Position numbers and translations under genes: made by a program. 43,594 nucleotides of DNA, taken from the sequence record OZ035783.1. One strand, given 5' to 3'. The DNA comes from Kagunavirus PDP21P8. Shown here in pieces: positions 27,209 to 36,500 of the stretch; position 1 is the stretch's first letter, and the number at the start of each line of letters is the position of its first letter. Under the pieces are notes generated by a model, which saw only the letters and a list, made by a program, of their open reading frames with translations, was not told the origin of the DNA and did no database searches.

Positions 27209-29482
27209 TTACTTAGCATAACGGTACACCTCTCCCCCAGCCCATGTTAACGGGAACCCTTCGGCCCACTCAGGTAATGAGCATAGCAGGTCACCCATCT
27301 CTTTAACCGTGTACTCTGGCGTGTCTGGCGTTTCGGCAACACATTCGTCATGTACGTGGAGTACAATTGGGTAGCCCGCCGCCTCGACCGTCAGGAGTCC
27401 GTTAACCAGTAAATCACGGCACAACGCCTGGATGATGTTTTCACACAATTTTCCGCCGTGGGTGTACAAAGTTGTCCACTGGCGGGTGGTCTGATTTTCA
27501 CCCTGATACTTAATGCGGACGTTAGTAGTAACGCGCCCATCCTCGTCAGTCTCTTTAGTGACGCTTAAGCCTATGCCAGGGTAGGACATGATGCGCCCAG
27601 ACGGCAGTTCCACGCACAACCACCAACCCGGAACCGGATTACCGTGGTTGTCTTTTTCTTTGGTACGCCAGATGCGGATGGCTCTGTCGCCGTTAAGGCG
27701 TACTCGGGCCCCCGCCCAAAACTCTCGTCCCGGATTTCTGATGGCGGCTATCACCGAATCCTTAAGGTCATTCCAGAATTTCACTGTTTCCGGATGGGCT
27801 TCCCGCCACATGCGCTTAATGGCGTCACAGGTGCGCCAGACTTCTTTAGGCAGCACATAAGAGGCCCGTTCATCTTTTTTACCAGGCTTTGGCGGGCGTT
27901 TAGCCTCCTGAATTCTGGCCCATTCGTAGCCACGGGCGGTAGCCGCCCAAATGTGGTCGGGGAACGTGCCCCGCATTGTCTCTGTCATTTTAAAGAGGTC
28001 CAGCCCGTAAGTTTTAGCCATAGTCATAAAAGCCCCTACGCCCCCCTCGTAGCCGAGGCCGAGTTCGCAACATTTCCCGACCTGACGTAGGTCCTTACGG
28101 GTGGCTTTTAGTTCTACGGGGTCCATGCCAAACATCTTGCCCGCGGTGGCGCAATAAATATCAATCCCTGCGCGGAAGGTCTCAAGCGCGGATGTCTCCC
28201 CCGCGGTCCAGGCCAACCCGCGCCCTTCTACGTTTGAGTAGTCGGCAACGAGCAACTTATTACCCTTTTCAGGGATGATGCAACTGCGAACAGTCGAGGC
28301 TGTCAGCTTGGATACGTCGAAACGACGGTGCGCCCGACCCTTTAGCAGCAGATTGATGCCGAACGATAGGGGGTTGAGACGACGGTTCCAGTCTTCGTCG
28401 GACTCCCACGGCTGGCGTACAAGTTTCTTCTCCTCGTTAGTCGGGTCATCATGATAGTACCCGCGCGACAGGTTCTGCGGCTGGAACCCTTTACCCGCAA
28501 ATCGTAAAGTGCGCTTTGCCCCACCGTACTGGATGCAACCGCGGCGGCGGCCGTCTTTGGACCGTCCTAGCAGGAGCGGTTTGTATTTTGTCGACGCCGT
28601 GGAGGCCGCGCCGAGGCGCATCTCAATGATTGTGCGCGCATCGTCAGGTAAGTCGTCGTCCTCTAGCAAACCTTCGAGCGTTGCTTTCTGCGCATTATAG
28701 ATATTGTAGGCCGGTGCCAGCTCCCGAAGGATTGGCAGGAAGTCTTTACCCGTTAGCTTCCCGCCAAATTTAGCCCTGGCCTCGTTTTTTAGCTCTTGCT
28801 TGTGGCGTTCAACTGCTGCTACCGCCGCCTCAGCAAGAGCCGCATCAACAAAGAAGCCTCGGTCGTTGATTAACTGGTCAAGTTCAAGTACACGGTCCTC
28901 GAAATCGGAGTTACCCCAACGTGGCAGCTTATGGAAGACTTCACGCATCGCTGTGATGTCGCTCACGGCGTACTTGATGAACAGCGCCCATTCGTCCGGG
29001 TGCGTTTCGGCGGTGTAGCGGCGGATTTTATAGTTCTTCGGGGTTGGTTTGGAGAAACGCTGAATCAGAGCCTTGCCACGTTTATCTTTCGCGTTGTCGG
29101 CGGATACGCCCAGCACTTCGCATAATGCGTCAAGTGAACCCGGCAGCGCGTGGCGAAACGCCCAAATCATAGTGTCAATGGTGTTGCTGACCGGAATATC
29201 GAAGCCCCAGCAGTTCTTCATGATGAGCCTATCGAAAAGTCCACCGTTATGCCACACCATCTTAATGCGACTGTTTGGCTTCACCAGACGGCGTAACGCG
29301 CGGTGTAAATCTCCCGGCATGTCGCTGCCGTCAGTGCAGTCCCATACCTGAACAGGCTCGTCATCAAAAGCATAGGTGCAGATGAGCACTTCGGTAGTCG
29401 GGTGTTCGGCGTAAGCATAGGAGCCGACTTTCTTCAAATCGGCTTCGGAGAAGGTTTCAAAGTCTAAGAACAGATAACTCAT
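27209..29482 (-). CDS. DNA polymerase, family A, with 3'-5' exonuclease domain
   Basis: FLDFETFS exo motif; pol motif A VADYSNVE, motif B RQVGKCCELGLGYEGG, motif C LHVHDE. Confidence 0.85.
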   Translation of the reverse strand: MSYLFLDFETFSEADLKKVGSYAYAEHPTTEVLICTYAFDDEPVQVWDCTDGSDMPGDLHRALRRLVKPNSRIKMVWHNGGLFDRLIMKNCWGFDIPVSNTIDTMIWAFRHALPGSLDALCEVLGVSADNAKDKRGKALIQRFSKPTPKNYKIRRYTAETHPDEWALFIKYAVSDITAMREVFHKLPRWGNSDFEDRVLELDQLINDRGFFVDAALAEAAVAAVERHKQELKNEARAKFGGKLTGKDFLPILRELAPAYNIYNAQKATLEGLLEDDDLPDDARTIIEMRLGAASTASTKYKPLLLGRSKDGRRRGCIQYGGAKRTLRFAGKGFQPQNLSRGYYHDDPTNEEKKLVRQPWESDEDWNRRLNPLSFGINLLLKGRAHRRFDVSKLTASTVRSCIIPEKGNKLLVADYSNVEGRGLAWTAGETSALETFRAGIDIYCATAGKMFGMDPVELKATRKDLRQVGKCCELGLGYEGGVGAFMTMAKTYGLDLFKMTETMRGTFPDHIWAATARGYEWARIQEAKRPPKPGKKDERASYVLPKEVWRTCDAIKRMWREAHPETVKFWNDLKDSVIAAIRNPGREFWAGARVRLNGDRAIRIWRTKEKDNHGNPVPGWWLCVELPSGRIMSYPGIGLSVTKETDEDGRVTTNVRIKYQGENQTTRQWTTLYTHGGKLCENIIQALCRDLLVNGLLTVEAAGYPIVLHVHDECVAETPDTPEYTVKEMGDLLCSLPEWAEGFPLTWAGGEVYRYAK

Positions 29483-29540
29483 TATTTTGACCCTTAGTAA
29501 AAAGGCCCAATAAAGGGCCTTAATTAAACAGATTCAGATA

Positions 29541-30173
29541 TTAACCACGGCGACGACGTTCGCGGCGCGGTGCTTCATCTTCTTCGTCGTCTTCCAGGTC
29601 GTCGGTGCTCGCTACTACACTGGAGCCGCCGAAGCGTTTACCTTCGCCCATATACTTGATGCCGAGGATGGTAGCGCACAGGTTTTTCCAATCTTTGTGC
29701 CACCATAATTCTACAGATACGTTTGCGATACATCCGCTATATACCTGCTCGCCTTCTATTTCTTTCCCGTCGATGTTGAAATCAGGCTCGGTTTGTTTTT
29801 CACCTTTAGCCGATGTCATAATCACCGGTTGGCGGTTGTTTGTAGCGCGGAAATACAGACCTTCTTCAAAATCCTCAATCGGATTATCTCGCATTGCCAG
29901 GTCACGGACGCAGCATTTGTCTGCGTGGTGGTCTACACCGTAGTTGGCCTTCATCCATTTCTCGGCAGCAGCGGCCCCGATTGCATCTGTTACAACTTCC
30001 AACGCGGTGTCGTAAAGCGCATCAATTTGAGGATGGTCAGGCTGCATAAGAACAGTAACCTGATACTTACCCTTAATCAGTTTACCGGTTTTCTTGTCCT
30101 CAGAGTCGGCGGCACGTTCAAATACGTTAACCCAGGCAGTGTTTACTTTACGCAGATTCAGTTTAATACCCAT
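29541..30173 (-). CDS. ssDNA-binding protein, DUF2815-like (putative)
   Basis: 210 aa, acidic stretch DDLEDDEEDE then basic tail; position between DUF2800 nuclease and polymerase. Confidence 0.45.
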   Translation of the reverse strand: MGIKLNLRKVNTAWVNVFERAADSEDKKTGKLIKGKYQVTVLMQPDHPQIDALYDTALEVVTDAIGAAAAEKWMKANYGVDHHADKCCVRDLAMRDNPIEDFEEGLYFRATNNRQPVIMTSAKGEKQTEPDFNIDGKEIEGEQVYSGCIANVSVELWWHKDWKNLCATILGIKYMGEGKRFGGSSVVASTDDLEDDEEDEAPRRERRRRG

Positions 30174-30226
30174 CTTGATTTCTCGCTTTTAAGTTTACTC
30201 CGGGAACTGCCCGGCCAGTGATTAGA

Positions 30227-30255
30227 AATATAATAGCTAACTATTCAGGTGTCAA
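30227..30255 (-). promoter_or_regulatory. sigma70-like promoter with operator in spacer
   Basis: minus-strand TTGACA-17 nt-TATATT; spacer contains TGAATAG-ttag-CTATTAT. Confidence 0.5.
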
Positions 30256-30503
30256 CCATTCCAGCCAGTTATTTTCTCAACTATCTCAATATACTTGCTG
30301 GGCCATTTCATGTTGTTTATGAATCGAAGCGCCTGTGTCTTCCACGATTTATCGCTCAGGATAGCTTCGATGTCGCGAGTTTGTGTTATACATACCGTAA
30401 TACACATTAAGATAAATGTTGGTAGCGTTAGTGGCATCATAAGAACCCAGAAAACAATACACGCTATAAGCCCACCAAAAATCCTGAACGTTTTACGAAT
30501 CAT
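30252..30503 (-). CDS. small membrane protein
   Basis: ATG 30503 overlaps upstream stop (ATGA) with embedded SD GAGGAGGA; two predicted TM helices. Confidence 0.45.
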   Translation of the reverse strand: MIRKTFRIFGGLIACIVFWVLMMPLTLPTFILMCITVCITQTRDIEAILSDKSWKTQALRFINNMKWPSKYIEIVEKITGWNG

Positions 30504-31741
30504 TCCAAATCCTCCTCTGTTACCTGATTCCACTCAGGACGTTTGTCGTCTGCCGTTGCGACGCATGGCGTGCCAGGCTTACGGGTAATAAAGTCTTTCA
30601 GTTCATCTTCCGACACAACTTTAACCGCTTCGGTCGGCGTCATGAGCACTTCTTTAGTCAGCTTGTCGCCGTAGAGTTCTGCCACTTTCTCCGCGTCTTT
30701 CCACGCGCGATTACCCGGGCGACCCTCAACCAGCTTGTACCCCGGAACTTTCTTACCGGAATGCACCGCGGCGGCCATAGCTTTCTCAACCTTGTCGATG
30801 TGCTGGCGCAATAACGGCAACTTCTCATACTCAGCTACGAGTTGCTCAGGGGTCAGTTCCAGTGCAAAGTCGTCTTCCAGTTCTTCCGCCAGTGCAGAGT
30901 TAACGGTTTTTGTACGCGCGGCGCACTGTTCAGAGAACCGGCACCACTGACACCCATCTACCGACGGTCTGAAGTCCGACGCTTTCAGGTTCTTCTTTCC
31001 ACGGAAATAGGCGTCAAGCGCTAACAATGCACGTTTCTGCGCGAACTTAGCGAACAGTTCCAGACCTTCAACCGAGATGTCCCACTCGGACGCACCGCCA
31101 GCATACGGCTGGAAGATAACAAGACGAACAACTGTGATGTTATAACGTCTCCTGAGTCGGCGATAAACACCGAGAGCGTAAAGCATTAGCTGCTTGTTTT
31201 CTTTCGCTTCGACACGATGCCGTCCCGTTTTAAGGTCGCCAATAATGAGCATGTGCTCGTCAGTGTTTGCCAGTTCCTGAACGGCAACAAGGTCGGCGGT
31301 GCCGAACGTCTCAATGCCTTCGTAGCCCGGATGCAATACCTCAGTAAGATTGACGCGCATTTCCAGCTTGGCGTAAGTCGCTACATCGATAATCGCTTTG
31401 CAGTAATCGGTGTACTTGCGCACCTGCTCAATCATATCCGTCGTAACCAGTACCGCACCTTTCATCGGGCTTATTAGCGCCTTAATCTGGCCTTTACCTT
31501 CATCCAGCACGTAAGCACCGACTTCACGCTCTAATGGCAACGCAGTACCGCGTATATAGGCGTTGAGATGTACCTCAGCTATGGTGTGACACGCGGTCCC
31601 TATAACGGCGGATTTACCCGAAGTGTTAGGAATATCTTTTTCACAGGCCAGTGCTGCACTGCACGCCAGCCACTTTTTGGCGCCCGACGGCGACAGTAAG
31701 GCGTGCACATCATTATTGCCACCGCGTTCTTTTAGAATCAT
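30500..31741 (-). CDS. PD-(D/E)xK nuclease, DUF2800/Cas4-like
   Basis: GTADLVAV...IIGDLKTG nuclease motifs; N- and C-terminal Cys clusters (CQWCRFSEQC) suggestive of Fe-S site. Confidence 0.6.
   Translation of the reverse strand: MILKERGGNNDVHALLSPSGAKKWLACSAALACEKDIPNTSGKSAVIGTACHTIAEVHLNAYIRGTALPLEREVGAYVLDEGKGQIKALISPMKGAVLVTTDMIEQVRKYTDYCKAIIDVATYAKLEMRVNLTEVLHPGYEGIETFGTADLVAVQELANTDEHMLIIGDLKTGRHRVEAKENKQLMLYALGVYRRLRRRYNITVVRLVIFQPYAGGASEWDISVEGLELFAKFAQKRALLALDAYFRGKKNLKASDFRPSVDGCQWCRFSEQCAARTKTVNSALAEELEDDFALELTPEQLVAEYEKLPLLRQHIDKVEKAMAAAVHSGKKVPGYKLVEGRPGNRAWKDAEKVAELYGDKLTKEVLMTPTEAVKVVSEDELKDFITRKPGTPCVATADDKRPEWNQVTEEDLE
30502..30520. repeat. 19-bp exact repeat ATTCCAAATCCTCCTCTGT (copy 1)
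   Basis: identical 19-mer at 33093-33111; encodes C-terminal EEDLE plus SD and stop/start overlap. Confidence 0.8.
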
Positions 31742-31887
31742 TTTGTAATCTCCACAATACGCGCATTAGTGAAACTGCGTTCGAAGCCAAATGTGTAGAA
31801 GACGTACCGGGCTTCGTCCAGACGTGCGTAGCGGCTATGTTCCTGGTCTTTACCGTCTATTTCTACGATTATCGCGTACCTTGTCAT
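31738..31887 (-). CDS. small hypothetical protein
   Basis: 49 aa, ATGA-coupled on both sides. Confidence 0.3.
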   Translation of the reverse strand: MTRYAIIVEIDGKDQEHSRYARLDEARYVFYTFGFERSFTNARIVEITK

Positions 31888-32156
31888 ACCCTGTTCTCCC
31901 ACTGGTCAATTAAATGTCGTGTCTGGTGATGGCAATGCATAGCCCACCCATACATCGACTCGAAGACATAAAAGTCAGGCTTGGCGAATGTCGTGCGCTT
32001 AATCTGCGACACGTGACGGCCTATATCTTTAGGCCGCGGTACTTTGCCTAAGTACGCCATCTCTTCCATCTGGTGCGCACCAGATGTCGCACGTAACAGC
32101 CATAGCGCCTCTGTGTTATCCCGCCTGTCTACGGCGCGATAGAGTTGGTAAATCAT
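31884..32156 (-). CDS. hypothetical protein
   Basis: 90 aa ORF in leftward operon. Confidence 0.45.
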   Translation of the reverse strand: MIYQLYRAVDRRDNTEALWLLRATSGAHQMEEMAYLGKVPRPKDIGRHVSQIKRTTFAKPDFYVFESMYGWAMHCHHQTRHLIDQWENRV

Positions 32157-32199
32157 AATTCCGACCCTCAGTTAAAGCGGCCAGAAGGCCGCGAGATAG

Positions 32200-32733
32200 T
32201 TATTCTTCTTCGAAGTACTTGTTCTTGATTGCCGTCAGGCGTTCCAGGTATTCAGCCAGGTCTTCGTCTTTAATCGCGGCAATCTTCATTTTCTTACCGG
32301 TGAACTCTTCCAGCAGTTCATCGGAAGCATCGCACGCGGCATCGCTCGGACCTTCGTTAATTGCGTCGTCGATAGCCTGAATCTGGTCACGCAGAGACTG
32401 GTAATCGACTTCTTCTTTCTCTTCTTCCGGCTCTGGCGTCGGCTCCTCTACTTTAGCTTTACGTGGCTTACGTTTAGGCTTCTCTTCTTCTTCTTCTGGT
32501 TTAGTGTCAACGACGTCTTCACCTTCTACCGGGATTTCTTTTTTAATGCTGGATTTTTGTAATTCTAATGTATGTTCGAGTTCAAGTTTCTCTTTAGCCA
32601 CCTCGTGCTTGGCAATGGCGATATTTAGTTTTGTGTCCAGTTCTTTCGATGATGCTTGTTTCACGCTATTCGCAGCAATCAGTTCATGCGCAACTACGAA
32701 ACGTTCCAGTAATACTAAGAATTTCTCTAACAT
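32200..32733 (-). CDS. acidic coiled-coil protein
   Basis: 177 aa, Glu/Lys-rich; SD AGGAG; first gene downstream of promoter 32765-32793. Confidence 0.5.
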   Translation of the reverse strand: MLEKFLVLLERFVVAHELIAANSVKQASSKELDTKLNIAIAKHEVAKEKLELEHTLELQKSSIKKEIPVEGEDVVDTKPEEEEEKPKRKPRKAKVEEPTPEPEEEKEEVDYQSLRDQIQAIDDAINEGPSDAACDASDELLEEFTGKKMKIAAIKDEDLAEYLERLTAIKNKYFEEE

Positions 32734-32764
32734 TTGTTTCTCTCCTCTCGTTTGGTATGGGCTA

Positions 32765-32793
32765 ACTATAATAGCGAACTATTCACTTGTCAA
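32765..32793 (-). promoter_or_regulatory. sigma70-like promoter with operator in spacer
   Basis: minus-strand TTGACA-17 nt-TATAGT; spacer contains AATAG-cgaa-CTATT; forward face carries TATAAT toward the XRE gene. Confidence 0.45.
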
Positions 32794-32813
32794 TGGGCTT
32801 TTCTAAAATAATT

Positions 32814-32830
32814 AATATGGTACTATTCAC
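32814..32830 (+). promoter_or_regulatory. second operator-like site upstream of XRE gene
   Basis: AATATGGTACTATTCAC, degenerate copy of the AATAG-N4-CTATT element, ~30 nt upstream of ATG 32858. Confidence 0.35.
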
Positions 32831-32857
32831 ATATCAACTGACTAAGGAGTAATCGAC

Positions 32858-33073
32858 ATGCAACCATCCGAACTAGGCATCCGTGTAGAACAACGCCGTA
32901 AAGAACTAGGCATCTCCCAGCGCCGTCTTGCGGTCCTGGCCGGCGTTTCCCAGGGCGCGATTAACCAGCTTGCGCTCGGGGTAACTCAGGACGTCCGCCC
33001 GGCGACGCTGTTTAAACTGGCGGAAGTGCTGCAAGTAGACGCTAAGTGGCTGGCGTTCGGTGAAGGGGCTTAA
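32858..33073 (+). CDS. XRE-family HTH transcriptional regulator (Cro/CI-like)
   Basis: 71 aa; LGISQRRLAVLAGVSQGAINQL helix-turn-helix; SD AAGGAG. Confidence 0.75.
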   Translation: MQPSELGIRVEQRRKELGISQRRLAVLAGVSQGAINQLALGVTQDVRPATLFKLAEVLQVDAKWLAFGEGA

Positions 33074-33088
33074 CGCCCCTTTCTTTTT
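33063..33088 (+). terminator. rho-independent terminator
   Basis: AGGGGC-ttaac-GCCCCT hairpin followed by TTCTTTTT. Confidence 0.5.
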
Positions 33089-33090
33089 AC

Positions 33091-35349
33091 CTATTCCAAA
33101 TCCTCCTCTGTCACCACCAGCATCTCATTCGGTTCGTATATCGTCTTCGGTCTTAATCTGTCCCCCATCTTTTCAGGTATCCGGTATGTGCCTGGTATAA
33201 CTTCACCGTTAACATCGCACCCGAGCATCAACTCACCGTCTTTCAGCATCTTCTCAAGATGGTGGTTGGTGATGGCGTGGTCCCCCGAGTTCGCCACTAT
33301 CTGCCGTTGGGTAAAACCTCGTCCGGTGTCGTCGGACTGTTGCAGGTCTTCCAGCGCGGCGAGTATTGATTCCTTACGCCCTTCATCCTTCCCGCGTTTT
33401 ACAGCATTCTTTACGTTTTCTTTACCTTCTTTAGTTAACCCTTCTTCCCGCTCCTTCTCCTCGTCAGTTTTGAACGGCTCGAAGCCCCACGGCATCAGCA
33501 CAAGCGCCTTGTGCGGCTCAGGCAGATCGAGGTTTACGATTGTGCCGTATTCCTCTGTGCTACCGAGGAACTCAACCGCACGGTATTCTTTCGGAGGCGG
33601 GGCTTCACGGAACTGTACCGACTCCAGAACCATGCCAACCGTTTTCTGTTGAGGCCCATGCTTAAATTTCGAGTGGTATACGTTTATCTGGCGGTCGGTA
33701 GCGCGCTCAATTGTCAGCTCCACATCAACACCGGCATACAGCGCCCCGCTACCACGGGCTTTCTTTCCACCCTTAGGCGTATGGTGGACGACACCCACAG
33801 CGGCTTTAGTTGCGTCGCGTACTTTTTTAAGGATGGCGATAACTTTACCCATGCCAATTGCAGTTGATGAACTGTTCTCGTCGAACTTGTCAATTGTCAG
33901 GGCCAGCGTCTGGTTGAGGGTATCGAACGCGACCATACCAATAGGCTCGTCCCCTGCAGCTTCACGCATCCTGCGGATTAGCGCGGGGATTTTTTTATCA
34001 CCATGCGCGGCTAGCACCTCACCCATATCAATGACATGTACGTAATCTTTACCTTCCTCGCCGTATTTAGCCGCGAGCGCGTCAATACGTGTGCGTGTAG
34101 CTGCGCCTCCCTCACCGTCGATATAGAAATGGTGGCAACGCTGGGTATCCGCCCCGGCAAACCGGTATCCGGCGGCGCTCAGGTACATCATCCCCAGCGT
34201 ATAGAACGATTTGTACGTGCCGGATTCCCCAACAATATCCCAGATACAATCTGACGGCATGTACCCCTCAACGACGAAATCAGCCTTTACCGGTTCAGGT
34301 AGCTCGTCCTCTTCTGAGTCATCATCGTCTTCCAGGTCGTCGAGGCTGCATGAAACAGATTCACGCACACCCCATCCGATAGCCTCGGCGACTTCACTGA
34401 ACGGCAGCCCGGTCGCATCACACGCGTATTTCCACACTTCTTTCGGGGGCATTCCTTCGGTCGCGGCAATGTCGGTGTCGTGAATCATGGTTACGTTCGG
34501 CGCTTCGTATCCCTCGCGCGGGAAACATAACAGGAAGTCGTCCGGGCGTGGTGTCGGGTCGCTGTAGTTTTCTGCGTGTTCTGGCGTAGCTGGCATCTTA
34601 AGGCCACGCGGCGTCATGATGCCGCCGTACTCGAAGGCCAGTGCTTCAAACGCATCTGTAAACGCGGTGCGCAGTTCTTCCGGTATCTGGTAATCAGATG
34701 CGCTGCTGATGTCAACGGCTGGGACGCCTTCCAGTAACTCATCAGGGTCAATCAGGTCGTTGCGGCGCGACCAGATAACGGTAGCGCCGACAGGAGGCAA
34801 GTACATCGGCTGCGAAAGAGTGAACCCGCTGCGGTCGGCGCCCATGCCTTTGAAGAAGTGCTCCAGCAATCCATGACGAACACGAATGATGTCACCGCCC
34901 TCAACCGTTCGGGCCAGCGGCATGACGACGCGAAAGCGCGGGGCTTCATCTGTGTGTGATGCCGTGGTATAGAGGCACATCGCCCGCCGGCTGCGCTTAA
35001 CCAGGCGCACAGCTTCCTGATACTCTTCCATGGTTGCACTGTCAAAGTCCAGGTACGCCAGCGACGATTTGCTTACAGACGCGTCACAGCGGTAGAAGAA
35101 GCCTTTACGCGCTTGCTTAAAGTCGCCAGTTTCAGGGTCTTTTACGGTGCTGTGCGTAGAGTCGCACGCGGCTGTGATATAGCCGGGGGCGGTCTTCGGG
35201 TTAATCCCGTCGCGAACGGCATCGAGCGGCTGAATTAACTCTTTCAGGTCGTCCAGTGTTGCCGTGTGTGTGGTTCTGACGTTTATATCCTTTTTCTCTG
35301 CCCGCGCGTTGCGACGGGACCACGAGTAGGATAAAATTACATCGGACAT
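33091..35349 (-). CDS. DNA primase-helicase
   Basis: 752 aa; C-terminal NTPase with Walker A GESGTYKS and Walker B-like AFDTLNQ; N-terminal primase-like region. Confidence 0.7.
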   Translation of the reverse strand: MSDVILSYSWSRRNARAEKKDINVRTTHTATLDDLKELIQPLDAVRDGINPKTAPGYITAACDSTHSTVKDPETGDFKQARKGFFYRCDASVSKSSLAYLDFDSATMEEYQEAVRLVKRSRRAMCLYTTASHTDEAPRFRVVMPLARTVEGGDIIRVRHGLLEHFFKGMGADRSGFTLSQPMYLPPVGATVIWSRRNDLIDPDELLEGVPAVDISSASDYQIPEELRTAFTDAFEALAFEYGGIMTPRGLKMPATPEHAENYSDPTPRPDDFLLCFPREGYEAPNVTMIHDTDIAATEGMPPKEVWKYACDATGLPFSEVAEAIGWGVRESVSCSLDDLEDDDDSEEDELPEPVKADFVVEGYMPSDCIWDIVGESGTYKSFYTLGMMYLSAAGYRFAGADTQRCHHFYIDGEGGAATRTRIDALAAKYGEEGKDYVHVIDMGEVLAAHGDKKIPALIRRMREAAGDEPIGMVAFDTLNQTLALTIDKFDENSSSTAIGMGKVIAILKKVRDATKAAVGVVHHTPKGGKKARGSGALYAGVDVELTIERATDRQINVYHSKFKHGPQQKTVGMVLESVQFREAPPPKEYRAVEFLGSTEEYGTIVNLDLPEPHKALVLMPWGFEPFKTDEEKEREEGLTKEGKENVKNAVKRGKDEGRKESILAALEDLQQSDDTGRGFTQRQIVANSGDHAITNHHLEKMLKDGELMLGCDVNGEVIPGTYRIPEKMGDRLRPKTIYEPNEMLVVTEEDLE
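33093..33111. repeat. 19-bp exact repeat ATTCCAAATCCTCCTCTGT (copy 2, orphan)
   Basis: same 19-mer as 30502-30520 but followed by TAG and no coupled start codon. Confidence 0.8.
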
Positions 35350-35407
35350 GTTGTATTTCCTTCAGCAAGTAATTTGGCCTCGGCGTTCACCGCGTCGGGG
35401 CTTTCTT

Positions 35408-35641
35408 TTATTCCAGGTCTTCTAAAGTAGCGGTCATTCCGCGAACTTCAGCAACAGCACTATATTTCCCGCCAACATTCTTCACGACACCGGATTTAAC
35501 CAGTACCTTCAACGACCCTTCAATAATGGCGGAACTATAGTACCTAAAATAACTACGGCGCAAGTCCATAACGCTGCACGACCCTTTTTTACGGGTTAAT
35601 GAAACGACTGCCGTAAATACGCGGGACTGGAACTCGGTCAT
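35408..35641 (-). CDS. hypothetical protein
   Basis: 77 aa; C-terminus TLEDLE similar to the EEDLE tails of primase and DUF2800 nuclease. Confidence 0.45.
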   Translation of the reverse strand: MTEFQSRVFTAVVSLTRKKGSCSVMDLRRSYFRYYSSAIIEGSLKVLVKSGVVKNVGGKYSAVAEVRGMTATLEDLE

Positions 35642-35808
35642 TTTACATTCTCCTTAATCCACGCTTCCACTTTCTCCGGGTCGAAAGTACCCGGCTGCCG
35701 GCGGCCCATAATACGGATGCAACAATCCGGGAACTTCCCACTCTTTAACCAGTTATTCAGCGTGCGACGGGTAACCCCGATACGCTCGGCTACTTCATTC
35801 TGTGTCAT
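35638..35808 (-). CDS. AlpA/excisionase-like HTH DNA-binding protein
   Basis: MTQNEVAERIGVTRRTLNNWLKSGKFP helix-turn-helix; ATG 35808 with G-rich SD; first gene of leftward early operon. Confidence 0.55.
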   Translation of the reverse strand: MTQNEVAERIGVTRRTLNNWLKSGKFPDCCIRIMGRRQPGTFDPEKVEAWIKENVK

Positions 35809-35840
35809 TCTCAAACCCCCATTATCAGTTAACGAAACCA

Positions 35841-35869
35841 AGTATACATTGCGAATAATGGGAAATCAA
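35841..35869 (-). promoter_or_regulatory. leftward early promoter
   Basis: minus-strand TTGATT-17 nt-TATACT, ~26 nt upstream of ATG 35808. Confidence 0.45.
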
Positions 35870-35884
35870 ACATAATCGCACCTA

Positions 35885-35913
35885 TTGACATTATGGAAAT
35901 CTTCGTTTAAGGT
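35885..35913 (+). promoter_or_regulatory. rightward promoter, back-to-back with leftward promoter
   Basis: TTGACA-17 nt-TAAGGT. Confidence 0.35.
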
Positions 35914-36149
35914 GCTTCTGTATCTTAGTTACTTTGATTCTTGTTCACCTTGTAAAACCCGCCGAAAACGAGCGCCCAACGCGAAGTGTTAGGCGGCAGT
36001 TTACTGAACATTCGAATTATCGTAACTTTCCTTCCTAAGTATCTCCGGTTGCCCTGGGCAAGCTCTATTCCAATCGGCGGAATATATCTTAAGTATCTGA
36101 TTTTCTTAAAGTGCCGTAGATTCGCAACCGTAAAAATGTAACGATTATT

Positions 36150-36173
36150 GGGCAGGCTTAAGGCCTGCCCTTT
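36150..36173 (+). terminator. stem-loop, weak intrinsic terminator
   Basis: GGGCAGGC-ttaag-GCCTGCCC followed by TTT. Confidence 0.35.
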
Positions 36174-36242
36174 AGTTACCAAGTAATAAGAATAAAGGCA
36201 CAGCCATACCTGAAGAATCACAACGGCAACGTAACTTTTCTC

Positions 36243-36274
36243 TTGCACACCCCAACATAATAGGATACTATTCA
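36243..36274 (+). promoter_or_regulatory. early-type promoter with AATAG-N4-CTATT operator
   Basis: TTGCAC-17 nt-TACTAT with AATAG-gata-CTATT overlapping -10; ~30 nt upstream of ATG 36306. Confidence 0.5.
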
Positions 36275-36305
36275 CTTATCGAAACGAGACAGAGGAGTGA
36301 GGGTT

Positions 36306-36500
36306 ATGTTTAAACGTGGTCAGTTGGCTAAAACGAAGCGAGGCGAACAGTACGTAATAGTGTTGCAGGACGAGAACGAGTATGACGAGGATAAGCTGGT
36401 TGACGTATGGGGTCTGGTAAGAAAGAAACCCGGGTTCGCCTTACGCGATAATCTGAAACTCATCGGCAACAATTTTAAATTCAAAGGGGATAACACGTGA
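36306..36500 (+). CDS. hypothetical early protein
   Basis: SD AGAGGAG 9 nt upstream of ATG 36306. Confidence 0.5.
   Translation: MFKRGQLAKTKRGEQYVIVLQDENEYDEDKLVDVWGLVRKKPGFALRDNLKLIGNNFKFKGDNT

Follow-up and report, generated by a model that had tools for sequence, protein, structure and literature searches.

In phage T7, the acidic tails of the helicase-primase gp4 bind to basic patches on the DNA polymerase gp5 (PMC12593628). A DTDF peptide that mimics the gp4 tail has been seen on gp5 in PDB entry 6P7E, and has served as a template for the tail of gp2.5, the protein of this phage that binds single-stranded DNA (its SSB) (PMC12339929). The gp2.5 tail makes contacts with both polymerase and helicase-primase (PMC5686142, PMC13402713); it also binds to the DNA groove of gp2.5 itself (PMC12593628, PMC12339929, PMC5686142). 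The structure of a T7-type SSB is known from phage Enc34, and crystals of Enc34 ORF6, two further DUF2815 proteins and gp2.5 show the tail in the concave β-sheet of a neighbouring molecule (PMC5686142). This article examines a 43,594-bp stretch of DNA from Kagunavirus PDP21P8 (OZ035783.1; the whole stretch is referred to as the window), in which the genes for a DUF2800 exonuclease (the nuclease) and for a replicative primase-helicase (the primase) end in the same 19-bp sequence, here termed the cassette.

The C-terminal tip of E. coli SSB, DDDIPF, is an acidic-hydrophobic hub that organises many DNA-metabolism proteins. Its role as an interaction hub has been reviewed (PMC9917605). Among phages, a duf2800-gp2.5-polA module has been described, with the description concerning gene order (Steczkiewicz et al. 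2012; PMC8093625). The window carries exactly this gene trio, and within the literature searched no report was found of shared, co-varying tails in the module.

Like T7, the window brings together a DNA polymerase of family A, a primase fused to a helicase and an SSB of the gp2.5 type whose C-terminal tail is acidic, and its helicase-primase and SSB have similar acidic tails with a hydrophobic anchor. Unlike in T7, this anchor is a Leu followed by one to three acidic or polar residues rather than a C-terminal Phe, the motif is internal in the SSB tail, and it is also present on the DUF2800 exonuclease, in the linker of the primase and on a small winged-helix protein. The primase is of the AAA_25 type; Pfam and PHROG scans gave no match to a T7 gp4-type family. 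As in the case of E. coli SSB, an acidic-hydrophobic SSB peptide is a possible organiser; whereas the E. coli partners bind to the tip, those in the window themselves carry a copy of it, which suggests competition or hand-off at a common site.

The explanation favoured here is that one short sequence probably carries two overlaid codes, a docking peptide and a ribosome site for an optional gene. In the first, the exonuclease and the primase end in [ST]-E-E-D-L-E-COOH as a copy of the first motif in the acidic tail of SSB, S-T-D-D-L-E-D-D; by analogy with T7, this tail would be a short linear docking motif through which all carriers bind to one shared site. In the second, Glu-Glu-Asp can be written GAG GAG GAT and the last Glu GAA before TGA; with this choice of codons, the tail also spells a Shine-Dalgarno sequence (SD), an A/T-rich spacer and an overlapping ATG.

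The repeat and the genes behind it

The cassette, ATTCCAAATCCTCCTCTGT (ACAGAGGAGGATTTGGAAT on the minus strand), has two exact copies in the window, at 30502-30520 and 33093-33111, and these extend to 23 nt if one mismatch is allowed (30502-30524 against 33093-33115; 22/23 nt). No third copy was found in the window by a search allowing two mismatches, and 100 dinucleotide shuffles gave 0 matches. The codons at both gene ends are listed in Table 1. Both copies place GGAGG 7 nt 5' of the ATG position, inside the upstream open reading frame (ORF). At the nuclease end, the TGA stop overlaps an ATG (ATGA, 30500-30503) that opens an 83-aa ORF in the +1 register. At the primase end, the same register has ATAG instead of ATGA; the SD-like GGAGGA is present, the ATG is spoiled to ATA, and with neither an ATG nor a downstream ORF in the window there is no overlap. 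A preliminary description, made from the sequence alone, had pointed out the identical 19 bp at the ends of two replication genes, its double use as EEDLE codons and SD, and the ATA at 33091 that is followed only by a terminator and the opposite-strand XRE gene; exact search, shuffles and the geometry at the nuclease end bear out all of this. Between the primase stop and the convergent XRE gene's 3' end there are 17 nt.

The mechanism is identical to standard ATGA coupling with the SD in the upstream ORF (4-nt overlap, GGAGG 7 nt before ATG), and since ATGA-type overlaps are common in the window (~20 of 69 predicted genes), coupling itself is ordinary. Two features go beyond the standard case: the SD codons are also selected as a conserved peptide, and the same dual-coded sequence occurs at two slots. 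Judged by the ATGA and SD geometry, translation of the 83-aa ORF would depend on that of the nuclease. Folding of the primase 3' end returned the terminator hairpin only (z = -2.2), and a known structured RNA at the repeat was rejected after an Rfam scan of 29000-36500 at E <= 0.1 gave no match.

For the comparison with relatives, the surroundings of the primase gene were taken from 41 IMG/VR loci of Kagunavirus and Jerseyvirus with 61-99% identity (labelled L below, as are loci of other lineages); 39 of them enter the primase-slot counts. The slot behind the primase is empty in 25 relatives, as it is in the window, with a gap of 20-27 nt in these relatives between stop and XRE gene. It is filled in the other 14 of 39, by one small gene each, and in 13 of these 14 the gene opens at the ATG of GAATGA, with the same geometry as at the nuclease junction. 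Four unrelated families are involved, encoding 65, 104, 135 and 191 aa. Among isolate genomes, the primase end is empty in 85 records, followed by the 65-aa gene in 16 (e.g. VB_EcoS-Golestan, phiEc3) and by the 104-aa gene in 11 (e.g. ST20, Shashou). The check for a coupled gene after the primase in related phages is thus positive in both data sets. Because relatives carry an ATGA-coupled gene exactly there, the primase cassette of the window can be regarded as an unused copy; with the slot empty and TAG followed by the XRE terminator, its ribosome site would at present serve nothing. Comparison of filled and empty primase junctions revealed no clean deletion or insertion scar.

Behind the nuclease, 20 relatives have an empty slot, whereas 17 relatives and the window have a filled one, with six unrelated families of small genes; that of the window holds the gene of an 83-aa putative membrane protein. 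Slot genes at both ends begin at ATGA or TAATG and would be translated by coupling to the upstream gene. The 3' borders are fixed as well, by the XRE terminator in the case of the primase and by the -35 hexamer of the SSB-polymerase promoter in that of the nuclease. The inserts have neither promoter nor terminator of their own, and their ends coincide with the following terminator or -35 hexamer or fall within it. Each of the two gene ends is thus a compact slot that an optional small gene may occupy. Like moron slots, they hold variable, unrelated small genes between sharply conserved flanks, and close relatives may have or lack such a gene. A classical moron comes with a promoter and a terminator of its own. 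In contrast, the inserts described here lack both, would be translated by coupling, and have little room, with a stop codon on one side and a terminator or -35 hexamer on the other.

No gene family is common to both slots in the 41 loci, and the idea of the cassette as a vehicle that carries genes between them was rejected on this ground. The XRE gene and its terminator are kept in 39 of 39 relatives, whether the slot is filled or empty, so the XRE gene did not replace another gene. The proposed loss or replacement at the XRE locus stands in part: relatives do have a coupled gene at this position, but XRE, being present in all of them, replaced nothing.

Some individual loci deserve mention. 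In L021 (11200-11440), a 60-aa gene past the nuclease lies between two copies of the cassette, ..GAGGAGGATTTAGAATGA[gene]AAAGAAGATTTAGAATAAAGTGTTGAC (the right copy is also given as AAAGAAGATTTAGAATAA). The 60-aa protein ends in KKEDLE, and the right-hand copy keeps the codons and the downstream bases of the empty-slot allele. Insertions can thus duplicate the cassette; this single case is the best evidence for a DNA-level role of short homology. In L001 (9793-12937), whose primase is 99% identical to that of the window, nuclease residues 1-358 are fused to polymerase residue 36, and the contig lacks the nuclease tail, the slot gene, the promoter and all of the SSB gene; it may represent a variant with a deletion or an artefact of assembly. 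Most slot genes encode very small, hydrophobic proteins (52, 58, 78 and 83 aa at the nuclease, 104 aa at the primase), which are candidates for exclusion or anti-defence functions.

Codon choice in the tails

Comparison of coupled and uncoupled alleles supports a ribosome site in the tail codons. At the nuclease end, an SD core of at least 4 nt is present in 39 of 41 distinct coupled junctions, compared with 3 of 24 uncoupled ones. The empty allele of Kagunavirus keeps the peptide VSEEDLE and writes it AGT GAA GAA GAT TTR GAA TAA; that of Jerseyvirus has GAA GAC GAT. Coupled alleles of both genera, and of Dhillonvirus-like lineages, have GAGGAGGA or GAGGA, and the contrast recurs in several lineages. 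For the primase, there are 11 distinct coupled junctions from Kagunavirus; GAGGAGGA is present in 10 of them and GAA TGA in all 11. Among the 19 distinct empty junctions, 8 have a weakened SD (GAGGAA, GAGGAT, GAGGGG, GAAGAG), and 5 have lost the ATG position through a last codon GAG.

Of the six instances of the motif in the window, only the two slot copies have GAG GAG GAT TTG GAA. The other four use the codons preferred by the genome: GAC GAC CTG GAA GAC GAC in SSB, GAC GAC CTG GAA GAC GAT in the primase linker, GAA GAA CTG GAA GAC GAC inside the nuclease and GAA GAC CTG GAA in the 77-aa winged-helix protein. For the same hexapeptide, the codons would be identical by chance with P = 0.003, and with P = 0.03 where only those for Thr, Asp and Leu are left to vary.

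The two copies do not track each other. In the same genomes, the Leu codon is mostly TTG at the primase and mostly TTA at the nuclease; exact 19-nt identity is confined to a few genomes (the window, L015 and L017; L022 with TTA at both ends). Uncoupled nuclease alleles differ from the primase copy at a minimum of 5 of 21 nt. Gene conversion or concerted evolution of the copies is rejected in view of this independent variation of synonymous sites at each locus. We conclude that three things account for the 19-nt identity, namely a common peptide, a common constraint from the ribosome site and the coincidence of TTG instead of TTA at one synonymous site, and that recent duplication or gene conversion does not.

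A second DNA repeat (25/29 nt) links 29581-29609 with 34319-34347. Using the same codons, it specifies STDDLEDDE within the SSB tail and SLDDLEDDD within the linker of the primase-helicase, and a weaker copy at 30869-30886 encodes EELEDD inside the nuclease.

The acidic motif and its co-variation

A six-frame translation gives 309 ORFs with a minimum length of 40 aa, and these contain [DE]DLE five times, always in a replication protein and always preceded by [ST]-x. Two of the [ST]-x-[DE]-D-L-E copies are internal, in SSB and in the primase linker; the other three end the primase, the nuclease and the 77-aa protein. In the proteome, 0.46 occurrences would be expected against the 5 found, a number reached by 1 of 5000 shuffles, and 3 proteins end in [DE]DLE where 0.002 are expected. 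The acidic tail had been mentioned early on as a possible shared interaction motif, with the product of 35408-35641 as a third bearer of LEDLE. That protein indeed ends in ATLEDLE (TTA GAA GAC CTG GAA TAA), and the shared motif has turned out to be the deeper explanation, on account of its enrichment, its conservation across genera and its co-variation; the interaction itself we infer.

All copies of the motif are conserved in Kagunavirus and Jerseyvirus. In 49 SSB homologues (44-95% identity), the tail always begins ..[AST]-[ST/N]-[DE]-x-D-L-x-D. Relatives without the 77-aa gene have a divergent protein of ~92 aa in its place (L010, 5622-5942), which likewise starts ..KFQ.. and ends in SHDLE. 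For more distant tails, a phage collection and IMG/VR loci were used; homologue searches with the nuclease and the 77-aa protein returned near-identical sequences only. In other genera, where the primase gene is on the opposite strand and uncoupled, nuclease and primase tails are kept with other codons: ATDEDLSNE and ATDDDLKD, respectively, in Dhillonvirus, KDDDLVD and TNSDLED in Eiauvirus, TDNDLAN and EEDDLEN in PSDA-2, and SDEDLS and SDEDLNS in the uncultured group L061-L067. The hydrophobic residue is a Leu at position -2 to -4 of the tails (L-E, L-x-D, L-x-x), and internal in SSB. A terminal Phe anchor does not occur in these tails; other lineages of the module use D-F or W-D.

In distant modules, the motif changes jointly in the SSB and the nuclease of one genome. 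Chivirus iEPS5 has an SSB ending ..DAWDEDEDWEDEV (shorter form ..AWDEDEDWEDEV), a nuclease ending ..GAWDDEDDDEV, a primase ending ..DPFDDEDEV and a helicase ending ..VWDDEE. In Staphylococcus phage R1988 (Triavirus), SSB has ..AAEDDFDELDTDDEDFL (AAEDDFDEL..) and the nuclease ..SAEDDFDKL, and in APSE-like contigs the pair is ..DDFDDISEGADADALI and ..NDFDDVSDDALAADLI. Across 42 lineage representatives, nuclease tails align locally with the SSB tail of their own genome at a mean score of 23.8, whereas permuted pairings give 19.1 +/- 0.66 (0 of 5000 reach 23.8); owing to the non-independence of the lineages and the uniformly acidic tails, this score is supportive and not a calibrated probability. 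The cognate SSB ranks first for 8 of the 42 nuclease tails.

Further tails were seen outside these pairs. In the Chi-like loci L125 and L128, DDE(D)EV-like ends that match the end of the SSB tail are found on five proteins: the nuclease, the primase, a helicase of SNF2 type, the small subunit of the terminase and the product of a 136-aa ORF. A 177-aa protein (window 32200-32733, minus strand; phrog_3127) and its homologues in L042, L043 and L044 have different, conserved aromatic-acidic ends (KYFEEE, YFELED, FFEFEEE, YYEIEE), and from its sequence this end may be another docking tail.

As to the receptor, T7 offers two models. The tail could bind to the ssDNA-binding groove of SSB, and would then load or displace SSB on the ssDNA made by the enzymes; alternatively, it could bind to a basic patch on the family-A polymerase. 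By this analogy, the two appear roughly equally likely. A broader proposal, to which we would give slightly less than an even chance, is that in phages with the duf2800-gp2.5-polA module the first SSB-tail motif recurs, in a form specific to the lineage, on the exonuclease and in many lineages also on the primase-helicase and further proteins that handle DNA, as a general hand-off code. All enzymes that make or use ssDNA would compete, via an interchangeable and co-evolving peptide, for one site (SSB groove or polymerase patch), and the codons would be reused as a ribosome-binding site where a gene follows.

Two alternatives place the cause at the level of DNA. The preliminary description regarded the repeat as a gene-end module duplicated onto two genes, with the primase copy orphaned by loss or replacement of a coupled gene at the XRE locus. 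The extent of the identity, exact or with one mismatch, the low chance of identical codons even with the SD and ATG positions fixed, the ATGA-coupled genes past the primase in relatives, and the L021 insert, which demonstrates that cassette duplication occurs, are all compatible with this idea; nevertheless, we consider it unlikely. Both tails are old at the peptide level, as other genera have them in different codons and even where the primase gene lies on the opposite strand; the copies within genomes do not evolve in concert, the slots share no gene family, and XRE gene and terminator are present whatever the state of the slot. The junction might instead act mainly as DNA, as a 'linker' of short homology where phages in the same cell exchange accessory genes by recombination and the peptide is merely carried along. 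The change from conserved to variable DNA does occur precisely at ATGA on the left side and at the terminator or -35 hexamer on the right side, the two slots hold at least 10 unrelated gene families, the L021 insert is flanked by a duplicated cassette, and the phage encodes an exonuclease and an annealing protein able to use short homologies (PMC8093625). However, the peptide is kept, in different codons, where no slot exists (SSB tail, primase linker, opposite-strand primases), uncoupled alleles alter the DNA and retain the peptide, and the long conserved flanking genes already give homology, so that a 19-nt element is unneeded; a linker role is quite improbable.

Two further alternatives concern the peptide. 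Acidic tails could be intramolecular DNA mimics that cause auto-inhibition by covering the DNA-binding surface of the protein to which they belong, or generic solubility or charge tails in which the D-L core is incidental. According to work cited in PMC5686142, the tail of gp2.5 and ssDNA compete for the binding surface of gp2.5 itself, removal of the tail from Enc34 ORF6 alters ssDNA/dsDNA discrimination (PMC5686142), and the tails are predicted to be flexible. Yet a generic charge tail would neither hold an invariant D-L (D-F in other lineages) at a fixed place, nor co-vary in detail between unrelated proteins of one genome, nor recur on the 77-aa winged-helix protein and its divergent replacement, and such tails are quite improbable as the explanation. 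That unrelated acidic C-termini should have the same codons by mere coincidence is extremely improbable in view of the shuffles, the enrichment of the motif both overall and at C-termini, and its conservation across genera, even though the TTG/TTA site varies independently at both loci and exact identity is limited to few genomes.

Several points weigh against the two-code explanation itself. The docking function is argued by analogy. The AlphaFold model of SSB contains a weak local signal only, a helical turn at 190-193 of slightly raised confidence, with the rest of the tail at low confidence. The similarity of SSB and nuclease tails may partly reflect lineage-specific composition, as lineages are not independent and all tails are acidic; junction counts are not phylogenetically independent either. 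Some shared DNA ancestry of the two tails within Guernseyvirinae stays conceivable, the chance of identical codons being only ~0.03 even under the SD and ATG constraints. Finally, in the lineage of the window the primase slot may have lost its gene or may never have been filled: the empty state is the commonest one (the 85 isolate records), and more than half of the empty junctions keep a perfect GAGGAGGA.

Genome context and significance

The window belongs to a Kagunavirus-like siphophage (Guernseyvirinae) of E. coli. The region is matched by 398 phage records, the best being Escherichia phages Henuyfy11N and hz69. On the minus strand, the gene order is a small helix-turn-helix (HTH) protein, the 77-aa protein and the primase-helicase. 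After the convergent XRE gene and a strong promoter follow three small ORFs, the DUF2800 exonuclease and the 83-aa ORF; a second strong promoter precedes the gp2.5-like SSB/annealing protein (PF10991) and the family-A DNA polymerase. Features are collected in Table 1. The family assignments made at the outset for the nuclease (DUF2800/PD-(D/E)XK), the helicase-primase (AAA_25) and the regulator (HTH_3) are upheld by Pfam and PHROG.

Table 1. Features of the two gene ends, the acidic motifs and the surrounding replication genes (window coordinates).
Feature	Position	Strand	Remarks
Exonuclease 3' end	30500-30523	-	GTA ACA GAG GAG GAT TTG GAA TGA = VTEEDLE*; cassette copy in use
Primase-helicase 3' end	33091-33114	-	GTG ACA GAG GAG GAT TTG GAA TAG = VTEEDLE*; cassette copy unused
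STDDLEDD, SSB residues 189-196, start of acidic tail	29586-29609	-	D192, L193, D195 invariant in 49 homologues
SLDDLEDD, residues 335-342, linker of primase and helicase halves	34324-34347	-	25/29 nt match to SSB motif DNA
Replicative primase-helicase, 752 aa	33091-35349	-	AAA_25 5e-20; phrog_3228 replicative helicase-primase 1.4e-299
DUF2800 / PD-(D/E)XK exonuclease, 413 aa	30500-31741	-	PF10926 1e-66, PF12705; phrog_69 exonuclease
83-aa hydrophobic small protein, fills nuclease slot	30252-30503	-	Coupled ORF after nuclease
Sigma-70-like promoter of SSB-polymerase operon	30227-30255	-	TTGACA, 17 nt spacer, TATATT; 11/12
XRE terminator hairpin	33062-33082	+	Assigned to XRE because of T-run on + strand; occupies 17-nt gap of XRE and primase stops
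XRE/Cro-like HTH regulator, convergent with primase gene	32858-33073	+	HTH_3 1.2e-12
77-aa winged-helix protein ending ATLEDLE	35408-35641	-	Tail codons 35408-35431 unlike cassette
gp2.5-like SSB	29541-30173	-	PF10991 2e-11; phrog_112 Gp2.5-like 3.4e-32
Family-A DNA polymerase	27209-29482	-	PF00476; uninterrupted in window

The 83-aa protein had no match in Pfam and PHROG scans; the TGA of its ORF sits within the -35 hexamer TTGACA of the next promoter. For the 77-aa protein, the AF2 model (mean pLDDT 87) has a winged-helix fold with a tail of lower confidence, and a fold search gave generic winged-helix matches only (best E = 5e-3). A single-sequence search of the PDB with SSB had no match; the alignment profile matched the DUF2815 structures 4JG2 and 4KLK and, weakly, 5ODJ ('Single-stranded DNA-binding protein').

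The polymerase match in L005, L023, L025, L028, L029 and L031 is split after ~residue 472 by an insertion of ~880 nt, possibly an intron or a homing-endonuclease insertion. A four-copy promoter/operator family is found on the minus strand of the window, at 30230-30253, 32768-32791, 32812-32835 and 36257-36280 (TTGACA..GAATAGTnnGCTATTAT, inverted repeat AATAG/CTATT). Two of the copies are 11/12 sigma-70 promoters that head the operon of the 177-aa protein and nuclease and that of SSB and polymerase; the family probably represents operators of the XRE/Cro-like regulator. A terminator-like hairpin at 35376-35402, with its T-run on the plus strand, directly follows the stop of the 77-aa gene and mirrors the XRE terminator past the primase. 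Both EDLE-ending genes, those of the 77-aa protein and the primase, thus show GAATAA/TAG, then AAAGAAAG, then a GC hairpin. The hairpin at 35376-35402 could be a terminator of antisense transcripts, or an attenuator before the primase gene.

At the DNA level, the findings are ordinary, with an SD in the upstream gene, an ATGA overlap and an optional small gene; this layer is standard coupling at an accessory-gene slot. The peptide layer would work like the gp4 and gp2.5 tails of T7, without being a member of that system in the narrow sense. Together, they provide a clean case of one sequence under two selections, which accounts for an exact repeat that resembles a mobile module. The motif common to SSB, exonuclease, primase-helicase and winged-helix protein, and the co-variation of SSB and exonuclease, predict a common docking site. 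If this is true, the principle of the T7 gp4 and gp2.5 tails extends to a large and widespread module, represented in Guernseyvirinae and Dhillonvirus as well as in Chi-like, APSE-like and staphylococcal phages. The tail would also provide a mark by which annotation could recognise replisome membership of small proteins lacking a known function, such as the 77-aa winged-helix protein, and the two slots flag hot spots where therapeutic-candidate phages gain or lose small genes.

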